Made by a program: the position numbers and the translations under genes
Shown: in pieces, positions 3,470 to 61,569 of the stretch
How positions within the stretch are numbered: position 1 is the first letter of the stretch
Layout: each line of letters opens with the position of its first letter
NCBI GenBank assembly: GCA_021776775.1
Contig: JAJFFE010000145.1
Coordinates: 30,884 to 94,883 of the forward strand
From: Planctomycetota bacterium
GTDB taxonomy: Bacteria > Planctomycetota > UBA8108 > UBA1146 > JAJFFE01
Direction: 5' to 3'
DNA: 64,000 bases
Notes under the pieces: model-generated
The model's database searches: none
What the model saw: only the letters and a program-made list of their open reading frames with translations
What the model was told of the DNA's origin: nothing

Positions 3470-4207
3470 TCAAGCGGGGCTGTCGGTCGAACTATCGACG
3501 GGCACCGCAGCCCCAGAAGACGTAGACGGCGCCGCGAGATCCGCCAACGCGTGAGCCCAATCAGGCAGGTCTTCTTGTCCCTTGGGCGAGAGATCGTAGT
3601 GGCCGGTCTTCACCCGATCGAACCAACCGTAGTGGTTATCGCGCAGGATGGCCCCGGCACGCTCAACACCGGTGCGCTCGCGAATTCCGCTGACTTTCAG
3701 CACACCCGCCTCGGCCAACTCGCGCGCGCAGCGCAACGCGTCCTGTCGATACGCCGTGAGTCGCTTGCGCGCCGCCGACCCCCCCGCCTCCGGATCTCCA
3801 ACTCGCTCAGCGAACTCTTTGAGCAAGCGTTCGCGGCGCGTGCTGTTCGCGCGTGGCCGATACGGCGCAGGATCCAACACCGCCACCACGTTCCCAAGCG
3901 CGGACACGGTCAGAAGGCCAACGCCGATGCGCCGCAACAACGCCTTCACTTGCTTCCCACGCGAACGCCACGATGCGCTGTTCCCTTTGCCTATCCGAAA
4001 CGCGATGTACACGTCGTCGGACGCCGAAAGTCGATCCACCGCCTGCAGAATCAACGCGAGGTTCAGCCGTTCCTTGAGTTCGACCACCACCGGCGGCTCG
4101 TCGCCGCGCACCGCAACAATATCGCAAGCCCCGATCTCCCCCTTGACGACGTAACCCTGCGCCTCGAGAAACCGCTTGATCGGATCGTAGAGCTGAACCT
4201 CAGACAT
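3470..4207 (-). CDS. hypothetical protein with N-terminal PD-(D/E)xK nuclease-like fold (CDIVAV...VVVELKER) and C-terminal winged-helix-like region. DUF2161-like.
   Basis: The D...ExK motif spacing is typical of restriction-endonuclease-like or Hjc-like folds. There is a TAGAAT -10-like box about 35 nt upstream. It is the same-strand neighbour of lexA across a repeat-filled gap. Confidence 0.5.
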   Translation of the reverse strand: MSEVQLYDPIKRFLEAQGYVVKGEIGACDIVAVRGDEPPVVVELKERLNLALILQAVDRLSASDDVYIAFRIGKGNSASWRSRGKQVKALLRRIGVGLLTVSALGNVVAVLDPAPYRPRANSTRRERLLKEFAERVGDPEAGGSAARKRLTAYRQDALRCARELAEAGVLKVSGIRERTGVERAGAILRDNHYGWFDRVKTGHYDLSPKGQEDLPDWAHALADLAAPSTSSGAAVPVDSSTDSPA

Positions 4208-4359
4208 ATGCCACCAGAGCCGGTCTCTTTCCCGCTTGCGCTTCGTTCGTTAGAGCGTGCATTCTAGCCTACTCCCAAAAGCGAACCAGCCGAGCGAAGG
4301 CGCCGCGCTTGCGTCGGTTGAATCGCGGGTGATGGTCGTTGAAGGTTGGAGAATAAGAC

Positions 4360-4650
4360 GGGCACATCATGGCGTGGCTCGAACACCAGTGGGTTGGGGA
4401 TGGTCACGTCGATGGCTCGCCACCGACTATGAGGCACGGGAATGGGGTTGTTCGCCGGGTTGCGGGTTGGCAAACAAGCACGCCGTGAGAACGAGGGACG
4501 AGCGCATCGAGGCGTGAACGATTCTGTTCCGGGCGAGGGGCACCGGGGATGCCCGACTCCGTTGGGTGTCGGTTGTGATACGTGGATGTTGCTAGGGGCT
4601 ATGTGATCCCTGACGGGGATGCCGATGGGCCATCTCGTCCGGACGGGATG
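4360..4650 (-). repeat. ~285-bp dispersed repeat, copy 1 (inverted relative to copy 2)
   Basis: It is near-identical along its length to the reverse complement of 29178-29459. It ends with GGGCACATCATGGCGTGGCTCGAACACC. Confidence 0.8.
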
Positions 4651-4989
4651 CGCGGCCGCAATGTTCCTCTGTCTTGGGCTCGCTTTTGTGCGATGAATCG
4701 GAACGGCAGGCCGGCCCTGACGCGGCTGGCTCGGCGGACGCAGATGGGGTTGCCCCAGCAAAACAAATGTCGAGCGATACAGTATCGCGCAGCCCGGGGA
4801 CCAGTGACCAACCGATCCACGCGAATCCCGTCCGGGCGAGGTCTACGTCACCGACTAGTGATGTAGACCGCAGTCTCAGCAAGACCCCGCCTGCGAAGCT
4901 GCGCTGTCGGGTAGGTACAGTCCCACAGTTCGCGTCACATCGTTTGCACGATGTCGCATTCGGCGGCGCAACCAAACGACGCCTCATGT

Positions 4990-5270
4990 TCGCCCCTCAG
5001 ATACCGCACACAGCCCGGTACGGATCACGCCGCCCAGCGAACATTGCTCATCGCCCAACACGCAGCCGCGAGCATCGGGCATCCTCGCTGCCCCTCGCCC
5101 CGAACCGACACGTTCGCGCTCCGATGCGCCCGTCCCTCGTTCTCAGCCGTGCTTGTTTGCCAAACCGCAACCCGGCGACCGACCTCACTCCCGTGCCTCA
5201 TAGTCGGTGGCGAGCCAGCGACTCGACCATCCCCAACCCACTGGTGTTCGAGCCACGCCACGATGTGCCC
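4990..5270 (+). repeat. ~285-bp dispersed repeat, copy 2 (more diverged in the 5' third)
   Basis: 5078-5270 aligns almost base-for-base with 29270-29459. It shares the terminal GGTGTTCGAGCCACGCCACGATGTGCCC. Confidence 0.75.
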
Positions 5271-5326
5271 GTCTCCTTCGTCTTCATCTCCCGCTGCGCG
5301 ACGTGATGGCCTCGCAACAGGACAGC

Positions 5327-5986
5327 TCAGATGGTTCGGCGAACCTCGACCACACGGCCGAGGATGCGAAACCCGCTCTTCGCCTCTGGGACGATGACTT
5401 CGTAGTTCGGGTTCTCTGGGTGGAGTTCGATGCGGCGACCACGACGGCGGAGTCGTTTGACGGTCGCTTCCGGTTCACCGCTTTCGCCGTCGATCAGGGC
5501 GACGACGATATCACCTGACTTTGCGGTGACCTGTTGTTTCACAATGACAACGTCCCCGGGCAGGATCGCAGCGTCGATCATGCTGTCGCCTTCGACTCGC
5601 AACGCGAAGTGATCGTCGGCCGCGCCGCTGGCGTCGAATGCGAGCACCCCGTCCGCGGTTTCGATCGCAACGTGCAGATCGCCGGCGTGCACGTGGCCCA
5701 CGAGTGGCACCCAACTGAGCGACGTGGTGGAGGTCTCGCCATCGAAGAGTTGCGGCAGTCGATAGCCGCGCGCACGGCCGGAGCGCTTGGTCAGCCGGCC
5801 TTCGGCGACGAGCTTCTCGAGGTGTTCACGCGCGGTTTGCACGGCGCGAAAACCGAACTCGCCCTGAACTTCACGGACGGTCGGCGACTCTCCACGCAGG
5901 AGCGAGTCCCGAACGAAGCGGAAGACACGCTCTCTCGTTTCGCCGGGTGGGGTTCGGGAAGACATGGGGAACATGGTACCAGACAC
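5327..5986 (-). CDS. lexA: LexA repressor (S24 peptidase)
   Basis: wHTH N-domain (ETRERVFRFV...TVREV), Ala-Gly cleavage region, and GDSM...VKRL Ser/Lys dyad. The likely true start is the internal ATG near 5965 (MSSRTPPGETRERVF). Confidence 0.85.
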   Translation of the reverse strand: MSGTMFPMSSRTPPGETRERVFRFVRDSLLRGESPTVREVQGEFGFRAVQTAREHLEKLVAEGRLTKRSGRARGYRLPQLFDGETSTTSLSWVPLVGHVHAGDLHVAIETADGVLAFDASGAADDHFALRVEGDSMIDAAILPGDVVIVKQQVTAKSGDIVVALIDGESGEPEATVKRLRRRGRRIELHPENPNYEVIVPEAKSGFRILGRVVEVRRTI

Positions 5987-19064: not shown

Positions 19065-21218
19065 CTAGCGGGGTTGATACATCGAGCGGCGAATCCGGTA
19101 GTTGTACGATCGGGGCGCGCCGTCCACTACGGACTGGTACGCCTCGTGGGCGCGCTTCAGATCTTCTTCTCCGATATCCTGGGCTCGAGCCCACGCCACG
19201 GCCCTCGAGCCAAACTCGGCAAGCTCTTCATCGGAGTCGAGATCGAAGACTTCGCGGAACACGCTCTTGAACGATTGAGACTCGTCGCGATGCACGAGCC
19301 GCGCTTCGTACTCGGCCAACTTTGCAGAGTGTTCGCGAGACAAGTACTGATAGTAGAGCCAGACGCTTGTGTACCCCTTGAACGACTTGCCACCGTCAGA
19401 GATCTCTTCGTACTGTCGGTCGACGAGATCATCCAAGCTCAAGACGCCGTGTTCTCGAAACTGCCTCAACCATGATTCGTTGGTGGGGTTCACGAACTGA
19501 CCGAACCTGATCTGTCCGGCGAAATCGACGGGGTACTCGTGATACGTCGTGAAGCCGTCGGACTGAAACGGTGGCACATTGCCGTCGAGAAGAAGGTTGT
19601 TGACGTGATGGCCGATCTCGTGAGGAAGCGCTCCCCATAGAGTCTCCGTCGCGGGCATGGGCTTGCCGTCCTGACCGAGCTGGCCGTCCCAGAACAATAC
19701 GATTTGCTTGCGAGAAGAACCCTCGCTCATAGCGTTACTCTCGATGCCAGAGTTCTGAAGATGTTCCGGGCGACAGCCACTCCAGAAACCGCCCGAACTG
19801 CGCGCTATCCGGTGCCCACTGCGATCACACCACTCTTCGAACTTCTTCTGCGAGCGCAGCATGAGGAGGACGGCCTTCTTTTCCTTCGGCCGACTGCCCG
19901 GCAGCTCACGACTCAACCGCTCTGCGAGCTGATTTCGATGACCGTACTCGCGGATGTACGCTGCGAGAACTCTCTCCGCAGTTCGTGCAATCAGAGCCGA
20001 CTCACCGGGACCGACCTGAGACAAGACGACGAAGTGTGCGCTGTCGTAACGGCTAAACTCACCACTGCCGTAGGTGACCTTCGCTCCTTCCGCCGGCGTC
20101 ACGAGCTCTTGGCTACTGATCCCGAGAATCCTCGCCTTCTTGGCATCGACGGCGATGACACTCGACCCCGTGTTCACGCCGAGCGCTTCGATCTGCTCTT
20201 CGAACTCCTTCATGTCGACCGGTTGCAGCCCTTCGTGCTTCTTCCCCTTCGCCTCCGCCTTCTTTGCCTTCTCGTTTGCTATGGCGTTGACGAAACCGGC
20301 GACCGTCTTGGTCATTTCGATTCTCTGGACCGCACGCTTCCAGATATCTTGCGCAGCACTTTTCAGATGCTCGGTCCCCTTCGCGTGCGCCGCCGTGACG
20401 TCCTCGCCCAAAAGGCGCACGCGGTCGTCCGCGATCGCGATCGCGGCTGCGACGAGCGTCGTCTGGTCCGGGAACGTGAACCGGAGCTCCGTTCCGTCGC
20501 GAACCACTCGAGTCGCGGACTTGCCCAGAGACACAATCAGAGAGTTACAGAAGCGGGTGTAGGCGTTGTTGACCAACGAATCGACGGTATTGTCGTGCGC
20601 TGCTTCCAGACTCTCCCCGTCGATGACATCGCCCCAGAGTAGCTGGTTGTAGCGCAACGAATACGCCTCCATCTGGACGCGCATGCGACAACGGTGACCG
20701 TAGTAAGCCAAGTCCTTGTACGTGACCTTGCCGACTTTGACTTGCCCCGAGCCCAGGTGCTGAGAGCTGATGTTCAGGTGTTGCACCGCTGCCGAAATGA
20801 CAACGTCGACATCGCTGTACTGGTCGGCGATCTGTCGGAGTCGCTCGGGGCTCGGCTCGAGCAGAGCATCTTCTCCGTCCAAGACGACCACGTCTTCGTA
20901 GACCCCCGCTTCGCGAAGCGTCTGGATGAGAACGTCCTGCAGCGCGCCCGCCGCAGACTTCCCGAAGTACGCTCCGTCGCTAGTCCACGTCGGCGCGTGA
21001 AACGGTAGCGAGCGATCGTCGCGGAACGGGACGATGCCGACTTTTCCGCTGAAGATCGGGGTCGTGCCCTCCGGGCGGGCCAACTCGGCCGTCGCTCTGA
21101 GCGTAATCCGCTGCGCCGAACTGCAGCCGACGGCGGCCGCTGCCAACGCGATGATTAACGGGAACAGACGGCTGACGCTTGAATGCGAACTCAGCATGAT
21201 CATCTCCACTGCAATCAT
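19065..21218 (-). CDS. lipoprotein with C-terminal zincin-like HExxH (HEIGHHV) domain, putative metalloprotease
   Basis: Lipobox AAAAVGCSS. HEIGHHVNN motif near residue 540. Confidence 0.55.
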   Translation of the reverse strand: MIAVEMIMLSSHSSVSRLFPLIIALAAAAVGCSSAQRITLRATAELARPEGTTPIFSGKVGIVPFRDDRSLPFHAPTWTSDGAYFGKSAAGALQDVLIQTLREAGVYEDVVVLDGEDALLEPSPERLRQIADQYSDVDVVISAAVQHLNISSQHLGSGQVKVGKVTYKDLAYYGHRCRMRVQMEAYSLRYNQLLWGDVIDGESLEAAHDNTVDSLVNNAYTRFCNSLIVSLGKSATRVVRDGTELRFTFPDQTTLVAAAIAIADDRVRLLGEDVTAAHAKGTEHLKSAAQDIWKRAVQRIEMTKTVAGFVNAIANEKAKKAEAKGKKHEGLQPVDMKEFEEQIEALGVNTGSSVIAVDAKKARILGISSQELVTPAEGAKVTYGSGEFSRYDSAHFVVLSQVGPGESALIARTAERVLAAYIREYGHRNQLAERLSRELPGSRPKEKKAVLLMLRSQKKFEEWCDRSGHRIARSSGGFWSGCRPEHLQNSGIESNAMSEGSSRKQIVLFWDGQLGQDGKPMPATETLWGALPHEIGHHVNNLLLDGNVPPFQSDGFTTYHEYPVDFAGQIRFGQFVNPTNESWLRQFREHGVLSLDDLVDRQYEEISDGGKSFKGYTSVWLYYQYLSREHSAKLAEYEARLVHRDESQSFKSVFREVFDLDSDEELAEFGSRAVAWARAQDIGEEDLKRAHEAYQSVVDGAPRSYNYRIRRSMYQPR

Positions 21219-23667: not shown

Positions 23668-26600
23668 ATGATCGCTCCCCAACCTCCGAACGCTGACGCC
23701 GTGTCCGCGACCCCGTCGGTTTCGACGGGCGGCGCGACCGCTCCATCGAGACTCCATCTCGCGTTTTGCATGCGGCATTCGGGCTACTTACGACTTTACG
23801 AGTCTTTCCTCAGGGAACTCGCCGCACGCGGTCACACCGTTCATCTCGTGATCCGACAGTTCGACGCACTCTACGACGAGCGCGTGCTCGGAGCGCTCGA
23901 AGAAGAACTGGTGCCACACCTGACTTGGGAAGTACTCGACGAAACCCGTCTCGAGCCGGGTCGGCTGCTGCTGCGACTGCTGCGTTGCATGCAGGACTAC
24001 CTGCGTTACTTAGCCCCGGCGTACCGAACCGCGCACTCGCTGCGCGCGCGCGCAGCAACCCGCCTCCCACGAGTCGCGCGCGCTGTTTGCAACGTCGTCG
24101 GTCGATCGCAAGCGTTGAGCTGGGGGCTGATTCGACTCCTGCGCGGCGTCGACCAATGTGTCGGCGCCCCGACCTCACTCGTCGAATGGCTCGACGCCCG
24201 TCAACCCGACGCGCTGATCATCACACCGCTCGTCGACTTCGGGGCGACTCAGTTGCCGTGGATGAAGGCAGCGCGAGTCGCCAGCACACCGACCATTCTC
24301 GCCGTCGCGAGTTGGGACAATCTGACCAACAAGGGGTTGGTCCAGCTCGAACCCGACGGCGTCCTCTTGTGGAACCGCTTTCAAGAAAAGGAAGCGCGAA
24401 CCTTCCACCGGTTGACGCGGACACGCATTGCCACGACCGGTGCGCAAGTCTTCGATCCATGGTTCGCCATGAAGCCGTCGACGACCGAAACGGAGTTCCG
24501 CCAACGGGTGGGGCTCGAGCCCGATCGCAACCACCTGCTGTACCTGTGCTCTTCGCCTTTCATCGCCCCGGACGAGGTCTCTTTCGTGAAGCGTTGGCTC
24601 GACGCCTTGAGAAACTCGGATGCTCTCGGCGCGAAGACGGTCGGCGTGTTGATTCGGCCGCACCCACAGAATGCCACGCAGTGGGACGCGTTCGATGAAA
24701 CCGAGTACCCGAACGTCGCCGTTCACCCCCGCGGCGGGGCGACCCCGATTCACACCTCGACGAGAAACGACTTCTTCGACTCGATGGCGCACGCGCAAGC
24801 GGTCATCGGCATCAATACGAGCGCTATGATCGAAGCGGGCATCCTCGACAAGCCGGTGTTCACCATTCAAGACGACGACTTCGTGGCCACGCAGGAGGGC
24901 ACGCTTCACTACCACTACCTGGTCGACGGCGGTCTGCTGACAGTCGCCAACGACCTGCCGGAGCATCTCGACCAACTTCGGGGCACCTTGATCGGGGCCG
25001 ATCCCCAAGCGGAAGCGCGTCGTTCGTTCGTCGCGGAGTTCATTCGTCCGCACGGCTGGGAAACGCCGGCCGCCGAGGTATTGACCGACAGCGTGGAATC
25101 GATGACGGCCGAGCTGCGCGCTCATCCGCGAACGCCCAGCATCGGCGAACGAGTCGCCGCGCTCCCAAGTGGCGCGTCGAAAGCGCTCGCTCGCCACCCC
25201 CGCGCCGCGCTGTTGTTGACCGCGTTGGCGTTGCCATTCCTGACGCTCGGCCGCTGGATCGCCAGTTGGGGCAACAGTCGACGAGTGCTCCATCTTCTGC
25301 GCTGCGGACATCAACGCGACGCGGCGGCGATCCCCGATCCGTTGCTGTTCGGCGATCTCGTGCGAGCGCCCGGACGCAAGGTTTCCGTGCTGCTCAATGG
25401 ATCGATTGCTGCCCGCTGCCTCGGCGTGGCCCTGACGCCGTTGTTGCTCGTCGCGTTTTTCTTGGTGATCGTCTACGGCGCGGCCGTGGCCATCATCGAT
25501 CTCCCCTTCATGCTGGGGTACCCGCTGTTTCTGCTCTGCACTCGCTACCGCTCGCAACCACGAACATTGATCCGCCTCCTGATCGTCGGTCCGACCAAAG
25601 CGCGCACCAGCGCGAGCAAGCTGGACGCGATCCGTGATCCGATTCAGCTGCTCGACGCCATGGACCAACGCTGCTACGGAACGGCGCCGATATCAGCGGT
25701 GCTCAACAAGCTGCGCGCCAGCGATCGACCGGTCGTCATCGGACCGTGGATGGGTGAAGTCGGCTTCGAAGTTCTCTACTGGATTCCGTTTGTCTCATGG
25801 CTCTTGCGCGCGGCGAAGGTCGACAGCGACCGAGTTCATATCGCTTCGCGAGGCGGAACCGCGGAGTGGTATCAGGCGATCGGCGGCCGATACGAAGACC
25901 TGCTTGGCCACCACACGGTCGAAGAGTTCCGCGCGTTTCAGGACCGGCGGGTCCGCGAGATCGGACACCAAAAGCAGTCGAAGATCACCGGGGCTGATCG
26001 CTCGGCGCTGGCCCCTGTTCTCGACGCTTGGGATGTCCAGCAGTACGAGTTGGTGCATCCATCGATCATGTACGGCGTCTTCCGCCACTTCTGGTTCGGC
26101 GAGATGCCGCTACGCGCAATCGGCTTGCTGTGCGATTTCAAACGTCTCGAACACCACCGACCGGAGTGGAGCGTCGTTTCCGACTTGCCCGAACAATACG
26201 TCGCCATGAAGTTCTACTTCTCCGAGAGCTTCCCGGACACGTCCGAAACTCGTGCGTTCGTGCGCGACGTTCTGGAGACCGTGGCTCGACACAACAAGGT
26301 CGTGCTCCTCAACACGCAGTTGGAACTCGACGAGCACAAGGAACTGAGCGACGGAATACCCGAGAGTGTCTTGGTTCTGTCGAAGGAGATGCTTCCGCAC
26401 AACAACCTCGAGGTTCAAACCCAGGTGATCGCGGGGGCCAGTGCGTTCATCGGAACGTACGGCGGGTTCTCTTACCTCGCGCCCTTCTACGGAGTTCCGA
26501 GCTTCGCGTTCCATGCCAACGAAGACGGATTCGTGCCGGAGCATGTCGACACTGCTCACCTGGCGTTTCGAACGGCAAACGAACATGCCGCTCTTGCCGC

Positions 26601-26724
26601 GAACTTCACTATGTTCAGCACGCAACAGTGGAAAATCCTAGCCAGCTTCTTCGGTAGCGCCGCCGCCGCGAGCAAAGAAGAATGGCGACGACTTCCGAAT
26701 GACGTTTCCGCTCCGAAGCCTTAG
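23668..26724 (+). CDS. 1018-aa fusion of a TagF-like phosphotransferase/GT-B domain and a second GT-B-like domain (polysaccharide biosynthesis)
   Basis: The N-half is homologous to 14151..15632. The C-half is homologous to 13142..14122. A hydrophobic linker (LLLVAFFLVIVYGAAVAII) lies between the halves. Confidence 0.7.
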   Translation: MIAPQPPNADAVSATPSVSTGGATAPSRLHLAFCMRHSGYLRLYESFLRELAARGHTVHLVIRQFDALYDERVLGALEEELVPHLTWEVLDETRLEPGRLLLRLLRCMQDYLRYLAPAYRTAHSLRARAATRLPRVARAVCNVVGRSQALSWGLIRLLRGVDQCVGAPTSLVEWLDARQPDALIITPLVDFGATQLPWMKAARVASTPTILAVASWDNLTNKGLVQLEPDGVLLWNRFQEKEARTFHRLTRTRIATTGAQVFDPWFAMKPSTTETEFRQRVGLEPDRNHLLYLCSSPFIAPDEVSFVKRWLDALRNSDALGAKTVGVLIRPHPQNATQWDAFDETEYPNVAVHPRGGATPIHTSTRNDFFDSMAHAQAVIGINTSAMIEAGILDKPVFTIQDDDFVATQEGTLHYHYLVDGGLLTVANDLPEHLDQLRGTLIGADPQAEARRSFVAEFIRPHGWETPAAEVLTDSVESMTAELRAHPRTPSIGERVAALPSGASKALARHPRAALLLTALALPFLTLGRWIASWGNSRRVLHLLRCGHQRDAAAIPDPLLFGDLVRAPGRKVSVLLNGSIAARCLGVALTPLLLVAFFLVIVYGAAVAIIDLPFMLGYPLFLLCTRYRSQPRTLIRLLIVGPTKARTSASKLDAIRDPIQLLDAMDQRCYGTAPISAVLNKLRASDRPVVIGPWMGEVGFEVLYWIPFVSWLLRAAKVDSDRVHIASRGGTAEWYQAIGGRYEDLLGHHTVEEFRAFQDRRVREIGHQKQSKITGADRSALAPVLDAWDVQQYELVHPSIMYGVFRHFWFGEMPLRAIGLLCDFKRLEHHRPEWSVVSDLPEQYVAMKFYFSESFPDTSETRAFVRDVLETVARHNKVVLLNTQLELDEHKELSDGIPESVLVLSKEMLPHNNLEVQTQVIAGASAFIGTYGGFSYLAPFYGVPSFAFHANEDGFVPEHVDTAHLAFRTANEHAALAANFTMFSTQQWKILASFFGSAAAASKEEWRRLPNDVSAPKP

Positions 26725-26905: not shown

Positions 26906-27181
26906 CTACACGTGACAAGTTAACGTTGAACAGAAGTCGTGTAACGCCCCGACCAGGTTCTTCGCGTGGAGGCTTCTGACAGGCGGGTGGGGCGCATCGT
27001 GGCGTGGCTCGAACACCAAGTGCACCTGAAATGCCCGAATCTCCTCCGGCCCCATCCCCGAAGGACAACGCCCAAAGAACCGCGCAAACGCCGCAACACA
27101 CTCCACGTACCGACGAACCGTCACCTTCGAGTACTTCCGAAGCTGCATGTCCTCGATCATCCGCTGACGAAGCTGAGTCAT
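26906..27181 (-). pseudogene. intI: truncated integron-integrase-like tyrosine recombinase gene (intI-like). Only the N-terminal ~55 codons are intact.
   Basis: Strong RBS AAGGAG, 7 nt, then ATG. MTQLRQRMIEDMQLRKYSKVTVRRYVECVAAFARFFGRCPSGMGPEEIRAFQVHL matches the IntI N-terminal SAM-like pattern (R.YS..T..YV...F..F...P..MG..EI.AF..HL). The reading frame then enters the 28-bp repeat end (VFEPRHDAP...) and stops. Confidence 0.6.
26989..27018 (-). repeat. 28-bp terminal fragment of the ~285-bp repeat, located exactly at the intI truncation junction
   Basis: GGGCGCATCGTGGCGTGGCTCGAACACC is shared with the ends of repeat copies 1 to 3. Confidence 0.7.
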
Positions 27182-27426
27182 ACCATGACTCCTTTCCGCT
27201 TCGTCTGTCGGACAGATCCATCGAGTTGTATACTTGCGAGCGTAAACGGATGGTCAAGAGGGCGCCGCCCCAGAGCCTAGCGCGCAGCGCTTGAGTTCAA
27301 CTAGTCGCCGCAGCAGACCAAGGGCAGTCTTCCTTCTTCACCACCGGGTGTCACCGGGTCGCATCCGCCCGTACAATCCAAGCTTTCCCTAATGCTGCCC
27401 CTCGCAGCTGAGCTTCGACGTTAGGG
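27182..27426 (+). promoter_or_regulatory. attI-like / promoter region between intI start and first cassette core
   Basis: Perfect 13-bp palindrome TCTGTCGGACAGA at 27204-27216, just upstream of the intI start. TACAAT -10-like box at 27372-27377 faces the cassettes. First R' core GTTAGGG at 27420-27426. Confidence 0.4.
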
Positions 27427-27438
27427 GGACAACCGCAA

Positions 27439-27816
27439 GTGAGAAGGCGTTCGCACAGTATCGTACTACTCGCTCTCCTCGTCCCCGTGCTGCTCTGGTC
27501 GACGTGGCGCGTGGGTTTTCACATCTCTTACGAACCAACGCTGAATTTCCTTGTTTATCCCGAAACCGCTAACGGCGCCGCATTCGTAAAGCGCGTATAC
27601 CTGCCGCGCTTCGAGACGATGTACGACTATGGGCTGGACTGGATTGGCCGCGGGTGCCCGTTCTCAGAGTTCGAGCGTCACATCGACCCTGGCACCAAGA
27701 TCACGTACTATCCGCCAGACGGCTGTTTGTCGTTTGACGTCGTCTACGACAGAGTTGGCCTACTCGACAGAATATCGACCCTCGAGTATGCGCATATCGA
27801 CCTATCGCCACCCTAA
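27439..27816 (+). CDS. cassette ORF 1: small secreted or membrane-anchored hypothetical protein
   Basis: GTG start 12 nt after the GTTAGGG core with a GGGGGA Shine-Dalgarno. N-terminal signal or TM segment. The stop TAA is embedded in CCCTAAC. Confidence 0.5.
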   Translation: MRRRSHSIVLLALLVPVLLWSTWRVGFHISYEPTLNFLVYPETANGAAFVKRVYLPRFETMYDYGLDWIGRGCPFSEFERHIDPGTKITYYPPDGCLSFDVVYDRVGLLDRISTLEYAHIDLSPP

Positions 27817-27938
27817 CTCGTCGCTACCGACCAACGGGGCAGTAGCTTGTGCCACGTCGCGGTCACCCGCACAATGTCGCTTCGTCGAATCCAGTTTCAT
27901 CATCCGCTGCCCCCGGCAGCTGAGCTTCAACGTTGGAC
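27811..27938 (+). other. attC-like site 1 (128 bp): R'' CCCTAAC ... R' G|TTGGAC
   Basis: R'' is the exact complement of the upstream R' GTTAGGG. The 3' half (GCTGCCCCCGGCAGCTGAGCTTCAAC) is conserved with the other cassette junctions. Confidence 0.55.
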
Positions 27939-27945
27939 GGATCGA

Positions 27946-28362
27946 GTGGAAGTCACTCTCCCCGGGATATACATATCCGAGAACTTCGGGGTTGTGCGAA
28001 GCCTGTCGGAGCTCAATACCGGAAACGCGCTGAGCGTCAAAAGCGGCTTCTTTCGGGATCTGGAGTTCTACGACAACGCGGGCAACTCGTGGCGTCCGGC
28101 GAAAGTCGAAGTTCACCCGCGCCCGACATGGTGGCGGGTGCTCTTGAACCTTCGTTGCGAGGTCGAAATCGAGTGGCAACTTGTGGGTCCCCTCGTACCG
28201 TCTCAAGTCGCTGAACGCATTTGCGAGCTGATCGACCAGGACCCGGACGACCTATACGATCAGTTTGTCACCCACGAGGAGTTGAAGGCCCTGGTGCGCG
28301 CAGCACAGGATCCAGCGGCGCTCGTACGGGTGGTTGCGACTCTTGGCGACCCGGAGGAATGA
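27946..28362 (+). CDS. cassette ORF 2: hypothetical cytoplasmic protein (~139 aa)
   Basis: GTG 27946 with a GGACGG Shine-Dalgarno 5 nt upstream. The track ORF 27847 over-extends through attC1. Confidence 0.45.
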   Translation: MEVTLPGIYISENFGVVRSLSELNTGNALSVKSGFFRDLEFYDNAGNSWRPAKVEVHPRPTWWRVLLNLRCEVEIEWQLVGPLVPSQVAERICELIDQDPDDLYDQFVTHEELKALVRAAQDPAALVRVVATLGDPEE

Positions 28363-28366
28363 GACC

Positions 28367-28497
28367 GTCCAACACAGATGGCTTCTATACGAGATCGCCA
28401 AGCAATTGACGACACGACAAGGCCGCACCGACGTTGCCGAACGTGACAACGCAGACGGATAGAAGGTCGGCGGTCTCAGGGTAGAAGCGAGTTGGAC
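28367..28497 (+). other. attC-like site 2 (131 bp): R'' GTCCAAC (5 nt after stop) ... R' GTTGGAC
   Basis: Imperfect inverted repeat: GTCCAAC-acagatg-GCTTCTA-tac-GAGATCGCC ... GGCGGTCTC-aggg-TAGAAGC-ga-GTTGGAC. It has asymmetric unpaired bases, as attC bottom-strand hairpins do. Confidence 0.6.
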
Positions 28498-28634
28498 TCT
28501 GCCGCGGCGCGGTGTTCGGCTATGGAGTTTCTATTGAACGGAACTCTTGGTCGAACGCTTCGAAACGCCCGACGAGGTGGCGGCCAGGGTCGAGATGCGT
28601 TTGCGCATCGGGGAACGCCACTCACTTGTTCCAT

Positions 28635-29057
28635 TCATCCCTCGATCGGGATTCGCGTGGACCGGTGGTTCGTTGAGCCCCGTGTTGTTGGGTACAGGGT
28701 CACTGGATGTCGTGCCGCGTGATACTGAGGTCGCGGCTCGCGTACTCCGGTTGGTTGATCGATGGGTCCTGCCGACTTACGCGACGCGGCGATCTTTGAA
28801 CGCATGAACTCAGTTCCGAACTCCCGTTCCGCGTACCAAGCGTTGTGTGTTGGGCAGAGGGCTCGCAGGTTGATCTCGTCATTCGAGCCGTCCTTGCTGA
28901 ACGGAACCAAGTGATCGATCTGAAGGCCTGTTCGCACGCCACAGCGATGCTGATCACGGCCGACGAATTCGCACCGCTGCCCGGCTTGGTGGAGCACTCG
29001 CTCACGTGTTTCACTTGGAATGTATCGGGATCGTTCCTTGGCCTTTGCAGAGTCCAA
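28635..29057 (-). CDS. HNH endonuclease (inside cassette X, opposite orientation)
   Basis: CEFVGRDQHRC...LQIDHLVPFSKDGSNDEINLRALCPTHN is an HNH/Cys4 motif. Confidence 0.7.
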   Translation of the reverse strand: MDSAKAKERSRYIPSETRERVLHQAGQRCEFVGRDQHRCGVRTGLQIDHLVPFSKDGSNDEINLRALCPTHNAWYAEREFGTEFMRSKIAASRKSAGPIDQPTGVREPRPQYHAARHPVTLYPTTRGSTNHRSTRIPIEG

Positions 29058-29177
29058 GCCGTCAGAACTGGGCGAAACCTCGATGAAAACCCTGTCAAAC
29101 GAAACACGACAAAGTTCTAAAATTCATCGCGCGAAGCTGAATCCAAAACAGACGAACCACCGCGACCGCCAAACCTC

Positions 29178-29459
29178 GCCCGGACGGGGTGCCCATCCGC
29201 ATCTCCGACAGGGATCACATAGCCCCAGCCAACATCCACATATCCCACCGACACCCAACGGAGTCGGGCCCACCCGCTGCCCCTCGCCTGGAACAGAATG
29301 GTTCACGCCCCGATGCGCCCGTCCCTCGTTCACACCCGTACTTGTTTGCCAACCCGCGACCCGGCGACCAACGCCACTCCCGTCCCTCATAGTCGGTGGC
29401 GAGCCATCGACTCGACCATCCCCAACCCACTGGTGTTCGAGCCACGCCACGATGCGCCC
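29178..29459 (+). repeat. ~285-bp dispersed repeat, copy 3 (inside cassette X)
   Basis: Aligns with the reverse complement of 4360-4650 and with 4990-5270. Confidence 0.8.
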
Positions 29460-29652
29460 GTCACCTGCTTCAGGTCGCATGCGACCGTTTGCAGTGTTGG
29501 CACCGCCGCGTCGAACAAGAGCGTGTGCATCGACTTCGGATTGCCGAGCGCGATGGGACGCAACTGTTCCGGCAACGTGAACAGCGCGTGGGAGTCAGGC
29601 ATCATGAAATCACGTCGCGCGGCACTACCGCGCAGCGGTTGGGTTCAACTCG

Positions 29653-29772
29653 GCGCGGCAGCCGACAAAGGGCGTCTGCTCTCTTCAGTGCCAGGTGCTC
29701 TCGGCCCACATCCTCGGTTACAATCCACGCTCTAACGAATGCTGCCCCGGCAGCTGATCTTCAACGTTAGGC
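29653..29772 (+). other. attC-like site of cassette X (tentative): R'' GTTCAAC ... R' G|TTAGGC
   Basis: R'' is 6/7 complementary to the R' (GTTGGAC) that opens cassette X. The conserved 3' half is GCTGCCCCGGCAGCTGATCTTCAAC. Confidence 0.35.
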
Positions 29773-29776
29773 GGAG

Positions 29777-30220
29777 ATGAGCGAGGAGCGTGGGAAACAA
29801 GACAAGCCTGGGTGGACTGGGTCGTATGACCACAACAATGGTCGAACCGCGGCCACGGTCGAGCTCCTGTGTGAGTCCACCCAACTGGCAGCGGACTCTC
29901 GCTTTCAGGACTTCGCCAATCAGCTTGCCCAGCACGTGGCCGCCCTTGATCCCATCGCGCTGTCCACTGACGACATTCCCGAGGCTGTGTCCCGAATCCG
30001 CAGCGAGCTCTCTCGCACGTATGCGGACAAGCCGGGTGAGATTCGGGAGAAGCTTGTCGCAGCAAAGGCCCAGCTCTACGCAACCAACTCGTGCCTTCTC
30101 GACCAGAAGTGGGTGTTCGAGGACGAGCGCAGTGTTCGTGAAGTGTTGGAGCATTACGGCCAACGCTTCGGGGAACAGCTCTCTGTTGGGGCGTTCTCTC
30201 GAACAGAACGGTCCGCCTAA
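29777..30220 (+). CDS. cassette ORF 3: truncated EF-Ts paralog (core/dimerisation domain only, no N-terminal EF-Tu-binding UBA-like domain)
   Basis: Colinear match to the EF-Ts core: TAATVELLCESTQLAADSRFQDFANQLAQHVAA...KPGEIREKLVAAKAQ...LLDQKWVFEDERSVREVLEHYGQRFGEQLSVGAFSRTE. The stop TAA is inside GCCTAAC, the complement of the upstream GTTAGGC. Confidence 0.65.
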   Translation: MSEERGKQDKPGWTGSYDHNNGRTAATVELLCESTQLAADSRFQDFANQLAQHVAALDPIALSTDDIPEAVSRIRSELSRTYADKPGEIREKLVAAKAQLYATNSCLLDQKWVFEDERSVREVLEHYGQRFGEQLSVGAFSRTERSA

Positions 30221-30399
30221 CTAACCGGTCGCCGCAACAGCCACGGGTCGGTTACCTCTCCCCGCGGTCGGTTTCACCGTTTCGACGTTGGATCGCGCCG
30301 CCGGCTCGCTACGTTCACGTTGCTCGGTAACCGCGCCGGCAGCCGCGTGTCCACTTTTCCTCGGTGAGGTCCGCGCTTTGGACAGTCCGCTCGAGTCAG

Positions 30400-33405: not shown

Positions 33406-33623
33406 CCTGCGCCAAGGAGGCTTCTTAGAAGATTGCGCCAGCCGCGCTTCACATCGGACGGGTGCCATCCCACTCCAGGTGAACGATTCCCACGTTTCGG
33501 GGGTCGTCTCGGCGTGCGAAGATGCACGATATACCGATATCGAGGCGGGATCGGCATCCCGCGGCGACGCTTCACGTGCCGACCTGGCGCGCGGGGGTTT
33601 CGGGCTCAAATCGGAGTGGTGGC

Positions 33624-36482
33624 ATGTCTCGACTCAATGCGCGACCGGTGCGCGAAATCCCGGACACCGAATTGATCGCGCGAACGCTAGCGGGTGATCG
33701 TGACGCGTACGGCGACCTCGTCGGCCGTTACCTCGACACGAGCTACGCCGTGGCGTACGGACTGACCGGCTGCCGTTCGGACAGCGACGACTTGGTTCAG
33801 GAGGCGTTCCTCGGAGCGTTCCAGGGACTCGGTCGGTTGCAGTCGCCCACTAAGTTTGGTGCCTGGCTGACCGGTATCCTTCGACGGCTAGATGCGAATC
33901 GCCGCCGCACCGCTCGACGACGTCGCGAAGTCATGCGCGATTACTCCGACCACCGACCGTCGGTGAGCGATGTCGATGGGCCCGTCGACGAACACGATGA
34001 AGAGTTGTGGCGTTCGATCCATGGTCTCCCGGATGAACTTCGCGTTCCGTTGGTGCTGTTTTACTTCGAAGGAGAGTCGACCGCGGCGGTCGCGGAGCGT
34101 CTCAATTTGGAACCGGCGACGGCCCGCAAGCGAGTCCAACTCGCCAGAGATCGGCTGCGCGAACGGTTGCATACGGATCCGCGGGCGCCGCTCGCTCGAC
34201 CCGAACTCAAGCGACTGCGTCCGTCTCGCGCGTTGCGGACAGCGATCGCGTTGACGATTGCAGCCGCCCCGTTCGGTGCCGAAGCGTCGGCCGCCGTGGA
34301 CCCGTCGCTGTTCGCCGACCGATCGCTAGGAGGTTGGCAGGAACCGTTCGGCGGTGCCTTCCCGATCAAGGTCGCGGCGGCGGCTCTGTTCGCGATTGGT
34401 TTGACGTTACTCATCGTCGCCGTGCGCGAAGACTCCGCCGTCCCGTTACCGCAACCGCAGTCGGCACGATCACCCGTTGCAAGTCGCGACGCGACGCCCG
34501 AACGTCAGTCGACGGCGGCCGACAACAGCGTGAGCGCATGGCAGCCGGCTCCCGTACAAGCAGCGCACGCGCCGACCACCCCGCCCCCGTCGACCCCCAA
34601 TGTCACTCGCACCGCCCAAATCCGCGGGACCGTTCGCATGGCAGACGGCTCGCCATTGGTCTGCCGACAGGTCTTCCTGGGGGAAAGCCGACAACCGTGG
34701 GCACGAGCGGAGTCCGCGTCGCTCGACGAGTCTGGGACGTTCCATTTCAACGTCGACAGTGAGGAAGACCGCTGGATCTACCTGCTGCTCGACCACGCGC
34801 TGGTCTGTCCGCGCGATTCGTGGGTACGACCGAGCTTCTCGCTGGAGAAGCAGCTAGACATTGTGGTCGAACCCGGCGTCACGCTGTCCGGCGTGATCGT
34901 GGACCCCGACGGTCATCCGGTTCGTCGAGCGCGCGTCACGTTGGAAACGTCGGAGCCCAATCAGCAGGGCGAAGCGCTCATCGAAACGAACCGGGACGGG
35001 GAGTTCGAAATCCCCCACGTCCCGGTCGGTGAGTACCAGATGTCGATATCACACGCCCAGCACTCTCGGCATCTCGAGCGAATCCAACTTCGCGGCGACG
35101 TCCGCCGAAACTGGACGCTGCAGCCTCCGCGAGTGTTGAAGTTGACGATCGCGGGACTGCCGGCCGAATCCCGAGAGTCGGTGATCCGCTTCTCGTTGAA
35201 GCAGCGCGACGCCGGGCTCGCGGCCGACGTGCTAGCGCACCGGGAAGAGCTACTGTTTCACGGAACACCCGACTCGACCGGCACGATGACGCTCCAGGCG
35301 CCGCCGCCCGGCGTGTGGACCGGCACCTTCTACAAGACTCTCCCGAAGCGCCGTTTCGAGTTGGTGATTCCTGAATCGGGGGACGAGGTCCACGCGACCG
35401 TCGACTTGGCCGTCGGCGCAGTGTTGAGCGGTTTGGTTCGAGTTGTGGGAGGCAGCGTATTGACCGAAGCGGTACTCGTTGACGTCTCTGGTCGAGGCGG
35501 ACGCGGCGCCCAACTGCGCACCCCGATCGAAGTGTTGACGAGCTCTTCGACGCCGATCCTCAAGTACACCCAAACCGGAGTTCCCGCTGGCGGCTACCTG
35601 GCCGGAGTCAAACAGTGGATCGCCGGCCACCCCGCAAACACGGACCAGCCCGAGTGGATCTTCTACGGCACCGAACGACTGCAACTCGACGGATCCGAAT
35701 CTCACACGCTCGACCTGACGCTACCGACAACCCAGCCGGTTCATGTCACGCTGTCCCCCGAGAGTTCGACGAGATCCACCTCGTTCACCGCGTTGACGAT
35801 TACGCCGGTCGCGGTGCCGGGATTGTTCACGTTCACCTTCGAAGACGGTGCGGTGGAACCGGCGGCACACATCGGGGCGCTGGGGCTGGTAGCGAGCCAT
35901 CGCGTTGCGGTGTTCGATCATCTTCCCCCTGGGCGCTACCAAGTGTCCGCGATGATCGACGGCGTTCGCACCCGGCCGACGCAGATCAACGTCGGCGACG
36001 CTGGGCAAGCACCGGTGATCGTGGAACTCGCTTTTCCGCAGTTCGTGCGCGTCGAGCTTTCCGTCGAGAGCACGTACCTGCCGAGCCGACTGCTGGTCCA
36101 ATGCCCGCCAGCTCCGACCTCGGATCGATTCTCGAGTTCCCGCGCTTGGTTCGAGGAGTACTCGAGATGGCTCGCTGGCGCGCTGGTCCGCGATCGCGTG
36201 GATCCGGAGTTCTCGAGTAGCGCAACCGTTCATCACTTCGGACGCCCGTACAACGACTTCGTCGTAGGGTGGCACTACTGGCGGTCGTTAGTGGTCCGCG
36301 ATGTGAAGTTCGAGGGCAATCTTCACGTCGGATCGAGCGGGCGCGCAACCTTGGAGTTTCCAGCCCACGCCCCGGACGACGCGATCGTGCGCATTCAGGC
36401 GCCCGGGTTCGACGCGATCGAGATGCGGGTGCGCGAACTGCTCGAGTACCAGGACTCACCCGTGCCACTCTTCCTCAAGTAG
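33624..36482 (+). CDS. ECF sigma-70 factor fused to a TM helix and a ~700-aa extracytoplasmic domain with carboxypeptidase-regulatory-like repeats
   Basis: GGAG Shine-Dalgarno then ATG 33624. Region 2 LVQEAFLGAF and region 4 EGESTAAVAERLNLEPATARKRVQLARDRLR. TM segment IKVAAAALFAIGLTLLIVAV. The track ORF 33522 over-extends at the 5' end. Confidence 0.7.
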   Translation: MSRLNARPVREIPDTELIARTLAGDRDAYGDLVGRYLDTSYAVAYGLTGCRSDSDDLVQEAFLGAFQGLGRLQSPTKFGAWLTGILRRLDANRRRTARRRREVMRDYSDHRPSVSDVDGPVDEHDEELWRSIHGLPDELRVPLVLFYFEGESTAAVAERLNLEPATARKRVQLARDRLRERLHTDPRAPLARPELKRLRPSRALRTAIALTIAAAPFGAEASAAVDPSLFADRSLGGWQEPFGGAFPIKVAAAALFAIGLTLLIVAVREDSAVPLPQPQSARSPVASRDATPERQSTAADNSVSAWQPAPVQAAHAPTTPPPSTPNVTRTAQIRGTVRMADGSPLVCRQVFLGESRQPWARAESASLDESGTFHFNVDSEEDRWIYLLLDHALVCPRDSWVRPSFSLEKQLDIVVEPGVTLSGVIVDPDGHPVRRARVTLETSEPNQQGEALIETNRDGEFEIPHVPVGEYQMSISHAQHSRHLERIQLRGDVRRNWTLQPPRVLKLTIAGLPAESRESVIRFSLKQRDAGLAADVLAHREELLFHGTPDSTGTMTLQAPPPGVWTGTFYKTLPKRRFELVIPESGDEVHATVDLAVGAVLSGLVRVVGGSVLTEAVLVDVSGRGGRGAQLRTPIEVLTSSSTPILKYTQTGVPAGGYLAGVKQWIAGHPANTDQPEWIFYGTERLQLDGSESHTLDLTLPTTQPVHVTLSPESSTRSTSFTALTITPVAVPGLFTFTFEDGAVEPAAHIGALGLVASHRVAVFDHLPPGRYQVSAMIDGVRTRPTQINVGDAGQAPVIVELAFPQFVRVELSVESTYLPSRLLVQCPPAPTSDRFSSSRAWFEEYSRWLAGALVRDRVDPEFSSSATVHHFGRPYNDFVVGWHYWRSLVVRDVKFEGNLHVGSSGRATLEFPAHAPDDAIVRIQAPGFDAIEMRVRELLEYQDSPVPLFLK

Positions 36483-59859: not shown

Positions 59860-61569
59860 GTGATTCGTATCATCCACCTGGGCCTAGTTTTGCTTACGCT
59901 CGGCACTCCTGCGTGGGCGCAGTTCACCGCCGTTGCCGGCGGCACCGCTACCCCAGGCCTGCCGGTTTCGGACACGAACCCGGTCGCGACGAGCACGATT
60001 TTCATCTCCGAGACTCTTTCGATCGCCGACATTCAAGTCGGCATCGACGTCACTCACACGTGGCGCGGTGACCTCGAAGTCGAGGTCACCTCTCCCGCCG
60101 GCACTACCTTGCGCCTGCACGATCATCAAGGAGGCAGCGGCGCCGATCTCATCCTGACGTGGTGGCAGTTCGGCGTTGCCAACGGCGACGAGGAGTACGA
60201 CTGCGCTTGCGAGATGCAGCCGGCGCCGGGGTCCTTCTTCGACTGGTTCGGCCAGTCCGCGTACGGCACTTGGACCATGACGGTCACGGACACCGTCCTA
60301 GACGATGACGGCACGTTCAACTCGTGGTCGGTGGCGATCTCCGACATGGGACCGCCGCTTCCGATCGAAGCGATCACCTGCAACCCGGAGCTCGGCACCG
60401 GCGTCGTCAATCTCAACTGGGGCAATCCACCGTCGGGATACGACGAGATCTTGGTACGTGTCAACGGAACGGTGATCGACACCATCGCGGGAATCTCGAC
60501 GACCTACTCGACCCCCGGGCTTTCACTGTCGACCATCTCGGACATTTGCCTGTCGGGTGTCCTCGACGGACTCGAATCACTACCGACGTGCTGTTCGACG
60601 TTTCTGCCCGGTCCGCCCTCCCTGTCGGCGTTGATCTTCGCCGGCGAGGGGCCCGGTGACATCGACAGCGCAGCCGCCCTCGAAGCGGCGCTCTCGGCGC
60701 AAGGAATCTCGGTCGATGTCGTCACCGGGTTGACTCCGTCGATCGTGGACACGCCGGCGAGTTTGTGGCTATGCCTCGGCACGTTTCCCAATGCCCACGT
60801 GATGACTCAAGCGGAAGGCGGACTGGTTCGCGATCTCGTCGTGGCCGGGATCCCGCTCTACGTCGAAGGGGCTGACACCTGGGGATTCCACCCCGCGACG
60901 CCAATGTGGCAAGTCGACGGCGTGGCAGACTTCGAAGCAGAGGACGGAGACGACTCGCTGGCCGTCTTGGTCGGGGCCGACTTCGCGGGCCAATCGTTTG
61001 CGGATTTGACGGCGGAGTACGACCACGACCAACCCGGGAGCGACTGGACGGATCGACTGGTACCGGCCATCAACGACATTGCCGGTCCTGAATCAGGCGT
61101 GATCTGGCGCAGCGAGGCAGCTCCGGGCGGAGCGGGATACGACGTCGGCGTCCTTTACGATACGGTAGCGCCGTTCGGCCGGGTGATCGCGCAGTCGTGG
61201 GAGTTCGGCGGGTACTCCGGAGATCAAGCCGAGGTCGCCGCTCGCTACGTCGAGTTTCTCGGCCAGGCGAAGCAACCGTCCGGGGTGCACTTTCTGCGCG
61301 GCGACTCCAACGGCGACGGATCGTTCAACATCGCAGATGCGGTTTCCACGCTCGCCTTGCTGTTCACGCTCGGCGCGCCGGTGGTCACGTGCTTGGACGC
61401 GGCAGACGCCAACGACGACGGTCAAGTCGACATCGGCGACCCTATCTTCACGCTCAGCGCTCTGTTCATCAGCGGCGCACCACTGCCGTACGCCCCTGGC
61501 CCCACCGGATGTGGACTCGACACGACCGCCGACGCCATCGACTGCGCGTTCTTCCTCGGCTGCTTCTAA
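59860..61569 (+). CDS. secreted protein with proprotein-convertase P-domain, FN3-like Cys module and C-terminal dockerin plus Cys-rich tail
   Basis: AAGGAG Shine-Dalgarno then GTG. Signal peptide. VTHTWRGDLEVEVTSPAGTTLRLHD is a P-domain. The C-terminus is GDSNGDGSFNIADA...DANDDGQVDIGDP...CGLDTTADAIDCAFFLGCF. Confidence 0.65.
   Translation: MIRIIHLGLVLLTLGTPAWAQFTAVAGGTATPGLPVSDTNPVATSTIFISETLSIADIQVGIDVTHTWRGDLEVEVTSPAGTTLRLHDHQGGSGADLILTWWQFGVANGDEEYDCACEMQPAPGSFFDWFGQSAYGTWTMTVTDTVLDDDGTFNSWSVAISDMGPPLPIEAITCNPELGTGVVNLNWGNPPSGYDEILVRVNGTVIDTIAGISTTYSTPGLSLSTISDICLSGVLDGLESLPTCCSTFLPGPPSLSALIFAGEGPGDIDSAAALEAALSAQGISVDVVTGLTPSIVDTPASLWLCLGTFPNAHVMTQAEGGLVRDLVVAGIPLYVEGADTWGFHPATPMWQVDGVADFEAEDGDDSLAVLVGADFAGQSFADLTAEYDHDQPGSDWTDRLVPAINDIAGPESGVIWRSEAAPGGAGYDVGVLYDTVAPFGRVIAQSWEFGGYSGDQAEVAARYVEFLGQAKQPSGVHFLRGDSNGDGSFNIADAVSTLALLFTLGAPVVTCLDAADANDDGQVDIGDPIFTLSALFISGAPLPYAPGPTGCGLDTTADAIDCAFFLGCF

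Follow-up and report, generated by a model that had tools for sequence, protein, structure and literature searches.

Between about 26.9 and 30.3 kb of a 64,000-nucleotide stretch of Planctomycetota DNA (assembly GCA_021776775.1, contig JAJFFE010000145.1, positions 30,884 to 94,883; hereafter the window, whose own numbering is used throughout) lies what is most likely the remnant of a chromosomal integron cassette array without an integron integrase (a CALIN, or cluster of attC sites lacking integron-integrase), which has been broken by two mobile elements. The first-pass annotation of this DNA had read the locus as the remnant of an integron with a truncated intI gene, an attI-like region and a divergent array; we retain the decayed array with its related, species-type attC sites, and abandon the intI and the attI. 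Conditional on the attC calls, five candidate sites fall within 3 kb and no IntI is encoded in the window. A gene with the IntI-specific domain is likewise absent from it, and the sequence proposed as attI consists of the leader and terminal (terIS) end of an insertion sequence (IS), followed by an attC of the local family. The analysis covered 64 kb of a 116-kb contig, with at least 26 kb on each side of the locus.

Circular cassettes that integrate between the G and the TT of a core leave a signature, in which the start of a cassette is complementary to its own attC. The units of the locus, with a broken unit and a possible upstream core, are as follows, a 4/4 swap being complementarity at four of four core positions:

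27421-27932, plus strand: cassette 1, with an orphan open reading frame (ORF) at 27439-27816 and attC1 at 27811-27938 (R'' CCCTAAC, R' GTTGGAC); 4/4 swap

27933-28491, plus strand: cassette 2, with an orphan ORF at 27946-28362 and attC2 at 28367-28497 (R'' GTCCAAC, R' GTTGGAC); 4/4 swap

28492-29121, no strand assigned: broken unit X, which starts TTGGAC, lacks a terminal attC and stops at the breakpoint of FB2, a copy of a foldback element (foldback homology from 29122)

28635-29057, minus strand: HNH-endonuclease ORF in unit X (Pfam HNH, E 5e-6)

29767-30287, plus strand: cassette 3, with an ORF at 29777-30220 and attC3 at 30215-30293 (R'' GCCTAAC, R' GTTGGAT); 4/4 swap

26925-26931, plus strand: possible upstream core GTTGAAC of a "cassette 0", with its complement GTTCAAC at 27295; uncertain

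All six heptamers on which the first-pass annotation was built are present where it had placed them. GTTAGGG (27420-26) is answered by CCCTAAC (27811-17), GTTGGAC (27932-38) by GTCCAAC (28367-73) and GTTAGGC (29766-72) by GCCTAAC (30215-21), the complementary tetranucleotides being AGGG/CCCT, GGAC/GTCC and AGGC/GCCT, each perfect at four of four positions. In all three units the complementarity pairs the unit's own start with its own terminal attC and not two ends within one site, and the boxes conform to the consensus RYYYAAC and GTTRRRY with the exception of CCCTAAC/GTTAGGG, which is off at one position. The units are 512, 559 and 521 bp long and contain one co-oriented ORF each, which ends at or just before the site; these ORFs begin 12, 7 and 4 nt past their respective cores, not the 10-18 nt given previously, and GTCCAAC lies 4 nt after the TGA rather than five. 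Unit X has no GTCCAAC partner downstream of its start before the foldback breakpoint is reached. Past the GTTGGAT at 30287, neither an ATCCAAC inverse core nor a family attC arm was found through the DUF3224 and VOC genes, into which the array had been suggested to continue and which cannot be shown to be cassettes, and an arm-profile search gave no family attC arm to the left of 26925. The "cassette 0" was considered as a fourth swap, enclosing the integrase stub described below, and was downgraded: the GTTC at 27295 belongs to a conserved IS end, and the pairing may be coincidence.

The heptamers alone prove nothing, because bare GTTRRRY/RYYYAAC pairs within 2.5 kb of each other are frequent (17 per strand in the window). 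The first-pass observation is nevertheless largely right and holds up statistically. The swaps are significant because their positions are fixed independently, either by the register of the family motif or by the hairpin at 28367-28497; at independently fixed positions, the chance of three 4/4 swaps is approximately (1/256)^3, or ~6e-8. A junction motif, CTTCRAC directly followed by GTTRRR, occurs at 27413, 27925, 29759 and 30280, the last with one mismatch. A search of the window for CTTCRACGTTRRR returned the four boundaries together with a single unrelated match at 60856 (one mismatch), and the longer motif GCTGCCCC..GCAGCTGAGCTTCAACGTT is confined to the locus, with zero occurrences expected in the window. 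The 3' halves of the sites are thus conserved between cassettes, as had been proposed.

An attC hairpin is made up of an R box, an unpaired central spacer and an L stem with extrahelical bases, over some 57-141 nt, and the five candidate sites, at 79-132 nt, lie inside this range:

27295-27426, plus strand: attC0 (R'' GTTCAAC, R' GTTAGGG), placed by the family alignment; 15/19 stem pairs, arm-pairing z -1.5

27811-27938, plus strand: attC1, family member; 11/19 stem pairs, arm-pairing z -3.1 (marginal)

28367-28497, plus strand: attC2, unrelated in sequence to the family; arm pairing -21.2 kcal/mol, z -6.3

29643-29772, plus strand: attCx, paralogue of attC0 (R'' GTTCAAC, R' GTTAGGC); 11/19 stem pairs, arm-pairing z -1.2

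30215-30293, plus strand: attC3, heavily eroded, 79 nt; 6/19 stem pairs, arm-pairing z -0.4

Membership of attC0 in the family, which the first-pass annotation had not noticed, is reflected in arm-profile matches at E 8e-6 and 3e-8, attC0 itself being among the sequences from which the profile was built. The sole site in the window to fold end to end, on both strands (z -2.5), is attC2, the only structurally intact hairpin. The imperfect inverted repeats of 120-131 bp that had been described between inverse cores and cores consequently stand for 28367-28497 and are marginal for 27811-27938, so that only the former of the two sites singled out for a folding check forms an end-to-end hairpin; 27295-27426, 29643-29772 and 30215-30293 fold no better than shuffled sequences, and the last is in any case just 79 nt long. 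Profile hidden Markov models of both arms yielded no further significant copies in the window, including the region left of the stub; an exact-pattern scan for the right arm across 185,579 species genomes gave no matches, nor did blastn of attC1 against plasmids. Within the window, conservation of the family is stronger on the right than on the left, and the right arms of three family sites contain a local palindrome, GCTGC(C)-N2-5-(G)GCAGC, at 27394-27410, 27906-27920 and 29741-29754, which competes with the long-range attC stem in minimum free energy folds.

Two sites of the same sequence family were found on the minus strand of a soil-metagenome contig (Ga0137373_10210078, here L021), at 241-331 (L021_a) and 1331-1429 (L021_b). 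Their layout is canonical: the R box is paired, an unpaired spacer of 5 nt/6 nt follows, and the 19-bp stem is interrupted by two single extra bases on the R''/L'' arm, the arm duplexes having predicted energies of -28.2 and -33.2 kcal/mol (z -7.4 and -6.8). Each has 19 of 19 stem pairs in register, as against 15, 11, 11 and 6 of 19 in the family sites of the window, and at several pairs L021_a and L021_b differ from each other in both partners. Across the six sequences 76% of cells pair, compared with 28-48% when partners are slid, and seven pairs change on both sides. Because the L021 members show the full canonical layout, the family is, on comparative grounds, most likely a genuine attC family of which the copies in the window are eroded versions. 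The right-arm palindrome noted above is absent from L021_a. The two L021 sites flank an ORF of 142 aa and a ParE/RelE-like and Phd-like pair, a toxin-antitoxin module by eye and typical cassette cargo; before the first site lies the 3' end of an apparent short-chain dehydrogenase gene.

The gene that had been taken for intI reads away from the cassettes:

27019-27181, minus strand: integrase stub, the first 55 residues of a tyrosine recombinase that is IntI-like and IS91-associated (Pfam Phage_int_SAM_4, E 4e-12)

As first reported, the ORF runs from 26906 to 27181 on the minus strand with the N-terminus quoted for it, and integrase homology stops at codon 55/56. Its identity is a different matter. 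Pfam recognises only the generic N-terminal SAM-like domain, and the integron-integrase models of NCBIfam score 20-21 bits against cutoffs of 265 and 435 (TIGR02249, 21 bits against 265). The stub aligns to the integrases of two plasmid loci, L001 and L002, from residue 1 without gaps, at 55-58% identity and 66 bits, and to IntI1 with a gap at 32 bits (the IntI1 query being adequate as a probe). A tblastn search with the stub against plasmids returned 374 records, 50-61% identical to it; most came from rhizobia and further non-enteric genera, and among them there was not one plasmid with an IntI1-bearing class 1 integron, although such plasmids are abundant in the collection. In the three plasmid loci inspected (L001, L002 and L003, integrases at 4001-4882, 4001-4879 and 4001-4864), a gene for an IS91-family transposase begins ~10-30 nt beyond the integrase gene, that of L002 scoring 367 bits on NF033538. 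The full-length integrases of L001 and L002 have TIGR02249 as their best NCBIfam match, at 182-199 bits in two stretches and under the cutoff of 265; these IS91-associated integrases are 32-34% identical to IntI1 over their full length and lack ~40 residues aligned to IntI1 198-245, the IntI-specific region, of which the stub, ending at residue 55, falls far short. By sequence comparison, then, the stub belongs to an IntI-like but distinct family of integrases encoded upstream of IS91 transposases and is not an integron integrase, an outcome that the first-pass annotation had itself named as refuting its interpretation. No recombinase catalytic domain is present in the stub, nor was one detected in the window by tblastn with IntI1 and two relatives. 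The notion of a conserved mini-protein, raised by short homologues of the stub, was rejected, several of these being fragments at contig ends. The plasmid copies may themselves be rearranged: collinearity between L002 (5743-5872) and L003 (5744-5873) ends at about residue 285 of the IS91 transposase and gives way to an inverted match, and in L002 the C-terminal motif of the transposase (…EFIRRFLLHVLP…RIRHYGLL) is on the opposite strand.

Further parts of an IS91-type element are found in the locus, none of them mentioned in the first-pass annotation as such:

29474-29602, minus strand: IS91 transposase stub, residues ~92-134 (NCBIfam transpos_IS91, E 8e-8, profile positions 89-131 of 356)

27182-27298, minus strand: IS91-type 5' leader and terIS-like end, with the palindrome AGCGC-GCA-GCGCT at 27279-27291 and then GTTC at 27295-27298 (plus strand)

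29625-29646, minus strand: second terIS-like end, ACCGC-GCA-GCGGT and then GTTC at 29643-29646; leader, integrase and tnpA residues 1-91 deleted

The transposase fragment, 43 residues long, scores 31.7 bits, under the whole-protein cutoff of 125 for NF033538, and is also recovered by tblastn with the L002 tnpA (E 7e-7, 42% identity). IS91-family terIS ends are known to have a subterminal palindrome beside a tetranucleotide drawn from the repertoire GTTC/CTTG/GTCC, and insertion creates no target duplication (PMC13181058). This arrangement is present in five copies, two in the window and three on plasmids, as a block of 25 nt with 19 invariant columns that reads, on the plus strand, as a 5-bp subterminal palindrome, 3-4 nt and GTTC, replaced by GTCC in one plasmid copy. 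The palindrome of copy 2, which recurs in plasmids with a slightly different loop, amounts to a compensatory change relative to copy 1, and four of the five copies are predicted to form a small hairpin. The block precedes the integrase ATG by ~130 nt in the plasmids and by ~120 nt in copy 1 of the window (range ~120-135). To its left, in the sense of the integrase, the plasmid sequences are unrelated to the window, where the left arm of an attC is situated. Because the plasmid elements carry the same block and the flank beyond it is unrelated, 27182-27298 is best described as IS leader and end. GTTCAAC at 27295-27301 accordingly unites the GTTC of the IS with the AAC of an attC R'' box, and 27299-27426 is the rest of a family attC; the same terIS-attC junction recurs at 29643-29649, the two being ~80% identical. 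An element that inserts after GTTC would regenerate GTTCAAC if the original R'' box had the sequence GTTCAAC. The oriIS end could not be identified, and left of 26990 there is no significant homology to a transposase or to an IS end.

It is in the light of these results that the original arrangement has to be judged, in which a decayed chromosomal integron would retain a truncated intI (27181-27016), an attI (27182-27426) and an array reading away from both. The stub and the cassettes are indeed divergent, in imitation of the layout intI-attI-cassettes; the stub's closest PDB structure is IntI4 (E 0.032), integron-integrase models are its top NCBIfam matches at 20-21 bits, and its family is IntI-like. 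Against this, the stub's similarity to IS91-associated integrases is double that to IntI1, plasmids bearing IntI1 do not appear among its 374 matches, and a stub of the cognate IS91 tnpA lies in the same locus; the "attI" is a conserved terIS block plus a family attC, and this composite is duplicated at 29625-29772 without an integrase stub; and the point at which the integrase is truncated is the tip of a foldback element. We therefore give the original arrangement hardly any credence.

The foldback element explains where both stubs end, and is represented by three pieces:

4351-5279, no strand assigned: FB1, a complete foldback element of ~920 bp with terminal inverted repeats of ~200 bp, used as the reference copy

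26990-27018, plus strand: foldback tip T3, the tip being all that survives here, its inner side fused to integrase codon 55

29122-29462, minus strand: FB2, one arm and part of the core (85% identity over 344 nt to FB1 4357-4698, E 4e-105)

Long terminal inverted repeats, multiple copies and the absence of a transposase gene characterise it as foldback- or MITE-like (miniature inverted-repeat transposable element). The best conserved part across copies is the 29-nt tip: 26990-27018 and 29431-29459 form a perfect inverted repeat of 29 nt, which had previously been overlooked, and the former matches the FB1 tips (4360-4388 and 5242-5270) with 93-97% identity. FB2 contributes tip T4, at 29431-29459/62, and it is an arm of this element, also present 22 kb away, that had been recorded as a repeat carried by "cassette X". 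The 29-nt repeat starts where integrase homology ends and lies 15 nt from the end of the transposase homology, such that the integrase stub adjoins the inner side of one tip and the transposase stub the outer side of the other. An alternative assignment of the repeat to the LHTWGQ motif of the transposase was rejected, since it is a foldback tip. The terminal inverted repeats of FB1 are 90% identical to each other, and a small internal inverted repeat is found at 4634-4654 and 4820-4840; FB1 contains no convincing ORF and no recognisable target-site duplication, no autonomous partner was identified for it, and it adjoins an ORF (5327-5986, minus strand) assigned by eye as LexA-like.

We propose that an IS91-type element inserted after the GTTC of an attC R'' box, GTTCAAC, and that a foldback element may then have entered its transposase gene. 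The composite would subsequently have been duplicated, as the resemblance of the two terIS-attC junctions suggests; copy 1 would have lost the stretch from 30-odd nt inside the foldback element through integrase codon 56, and copy 2 the integrase, much the greater part of the leader and transposase residues 1-91. With IntI absent nearby and the hairpins mostly degraded, the cassettes have probably become immobile.

A related explanation would credit the IS91-type element with importing the array and duplicating part of it, through one-ended, rolling-circle transposition past its terIS, in the manner of ISCR1 with class 1 integrons. In both copies the cassettes directly adjoin the terIS end on its outer flank, which is carried along if termination fails; the same terIS-attC junction is present twice with different distal cassettes; and the whole block is an insert of low GC content between core genes, without IntI. 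Yet neither an oriIS end nor an outer junction flanked by GTTC was identified, the two copies are only ~80% identical, so that the events are old or the copies stem from ordinary duplication, and explanations independent of IntI, such as rearrangement or loss of intI, are sufficient (PMC4889954). We consider transposition of the array unlikely on balance. Nonetheless, terIS ends are fused to attC R'' boxes and the cassettes occupy the flank that would travel along in one-ended transposition, which hints at movement of arrays independent of IntI. A broader idea, decidedly speculative, is that IS91-type elements with an IntI-like integrase home to the GTTCAAC of attC R'' boxes, at the point between GTTC and AAC, and then carry adjacent cassettes past terIS to new chromosomal sites; if true, it would give orphan cassette arrays (CALINs) a way, independent of IntI, to originate and disperse beyond the clinical context of ISCR1 and class 1 integrons.

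Several observations weigh against the reading of the locus as a cassette-array remnant broken by two mobile elements. Four of the five candidate sites fold no better than shuffled sequences, 27811-27938 being marginal; a hairpin scan independent of the family ranks the sites between 24th and 458th of 2726 candidates and is non-discriminating in this GC-rich window; and a scan of the whole window against Rfam 15 gave no match. The right arm of attC1 is identical to that of L021_a at 26 of 26 positions, a figure subject to ascertainment bias given that L021 was found with the right-arm pattern, as the left arm and the structure are not; furthermore, the R' core of the first L021 site lacks complementarity to the R'' box of its neighbour. 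As regards the mobile elements, the history of duplication and deletion is a reconstruction: joining the transposase frame across an excised 26990-29459 gains only +3 bits when the natural boundaries are used, and on its own the left flank reaches 17.7 bits as transposase and has an internal stop codon. Finally, an intI may lie elsewhere on the contig, beyond the 64 kb covered.

Some of the same points would favour an origin unconnected with integrons, whereby the units of ~130 nt are a lineage-specific intergenic repeat, whether of the REP (repetitive extragenic palindromic), MITE or terminator type, and the complementarity of the cores is coincidental or due to another process. To the weak folding at four of five sites and the uninformative hairpin scan may be added the lack of IntI in the window, of an Rfam match and of a match to plasmid integrons. 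Such an origin has difficulty with three independent 4/4 swaps at positions defined by register, each to the unit's own start, with family members in L021 that show the canonical attC layout, bulged bases and compensatory changes, and with units of ~510-560 bp that have a single co-oriented ORF ending at the site and a GC content under that of the flanks; we regard it as very unlikely, and continue to favour the remnant of a cassette array.

The cassettes encode proteins with few or no relatives. Only self-matches were retrieved for the ORFs of cassettes 1 and 2 among 5.8e9 proteins. The ORF of cassette 3 specifies a stand-alone, divergent EF-Ts core domain of 147 aa (Pfam EF_TS, E 4e-19) from which the N-terminal domain is missing. 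In a set of 1.8 billion representative proteins no sequence exceeds 38% identity to it, and almost every match is an ordinary full-length EF-Ts. No meaningful match to a defence family resulted from a PADLOC screen of the cassette ORFs, and promoter and terminator scans remained at chance level.

GC content is 57-60% in the block and 62-67% in the flanks, and remains low up to ~31.4 kb. The flanks consist of ordinary chromosomal core genes: the neighbourhood of a GT2 glycosyltransferase borders one end of the block, and MnmC and an ECF-sigma fusion border the opposite end. A comparison of synteny through the flanking MnmC led only to relatives at no more than 42% identity, in unrelated Proteobacteria, and to no orthologous locus that could be compared. 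Adjoining the GT2 glycosyltransferase, the ORFs 23668-26724 (1018 aa) and 19065-21218 (717 aa) have no Pfam domain at E <=0.001; at 33522-36482 is encoded a protein of 986 aa in which regions 2 and 4 of an ECF sigma factor are fused to a long C-terminal extension that includes a CarboxypepD_reg domain.

The locus is of a known kind, the outcome an ordinary one, and current understanding is left unchanged by it. CALINs outnumber complete integrons (Cury et al., 2016, PMC4889954); 38% of them have a neighbouring IS, 95% are without a recognisable intI pseudogene, and insertion sequences have been proposed to disrupt integrons (Cury et al., PMC4889954). The locus is a clear example of an orphan cassette array broken by insertion elements, as proposed for CALINs, and it extends integron-type cassettes to a poorly sampled lineage, there being no close relative among ~185,000 species genomes. 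That an IS91-type end lies precisely inside an attC R'' box is a choice of target that follows naturally from the family's preference for GTTC. Since IS91-associated integrases are close look-alikes of IntI, with an integron integrase as their best NCBIfam match, a short N-terminal SAM-like stub does not testify to an integron integrase even when it lies beside attC-like repeats, and fragments of such integrases could be mis-called as IntI.

Compared with known systems, the stub resembles IntI (TIGR02249; IntI1, VchIntIA) in its N-terminal SAM-like pattern, in the ~32-34% identity of its family to IntI1 and in its best NCBIfam match; its relatives differ in scoring 182-199 bits against 265, in having no insertion of ~40 residues, and in being linked to IS91 transposases and not to attI or attC. 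Like non-autonomous foldback and MITE-like elements, FB measures ~920 bp, has ~200-bp terminal inverted repeats and no convincing ORF, and is present in at least two copies whose tips are best conserved, but it shows neither a recognised target-site duplication nor an identified autonomous partner. With the IS91 family (IS91, IS801, IS1294, ISCR; here the subgroup of L001-L003) the locus shares a Y2/HUH fragment, the integrase found upstream in intact copies, a terIS-like palindrome with GTTC/GTCC, insertion after GTTC and the absence of a target duplication; it differs in that only residues 1-55 of the integrase and ~92-134 of the transposase are kept, in that no oriIS was found, and in its target, an attC R'' box. 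Sedentary chromosomal arrays (the Vibrio superintegron with its Vibrio cholerae repeats, VCR) are similar in their chromosomal location, in attC sites that are related and nearly equal in length (128-132 nt), in ORFs without assigned function and in R''/R' exchange, whereas the locus has no intI, attI or Pc, comprises 3-5 units only, includes in 28367-28497 a site unrelated in sequence, and has degraded hairpins. The locus also resembles CALINs, which likewise have at least two attC-type sites within 4 kb, a few cassettes with unknown ORFs, no IntI nearby and an adjoining IS; it departs from them in stems that are mostly eroded, and that might escape calls by covariance models, and in an IS that sits exactly in the attC R'' box.

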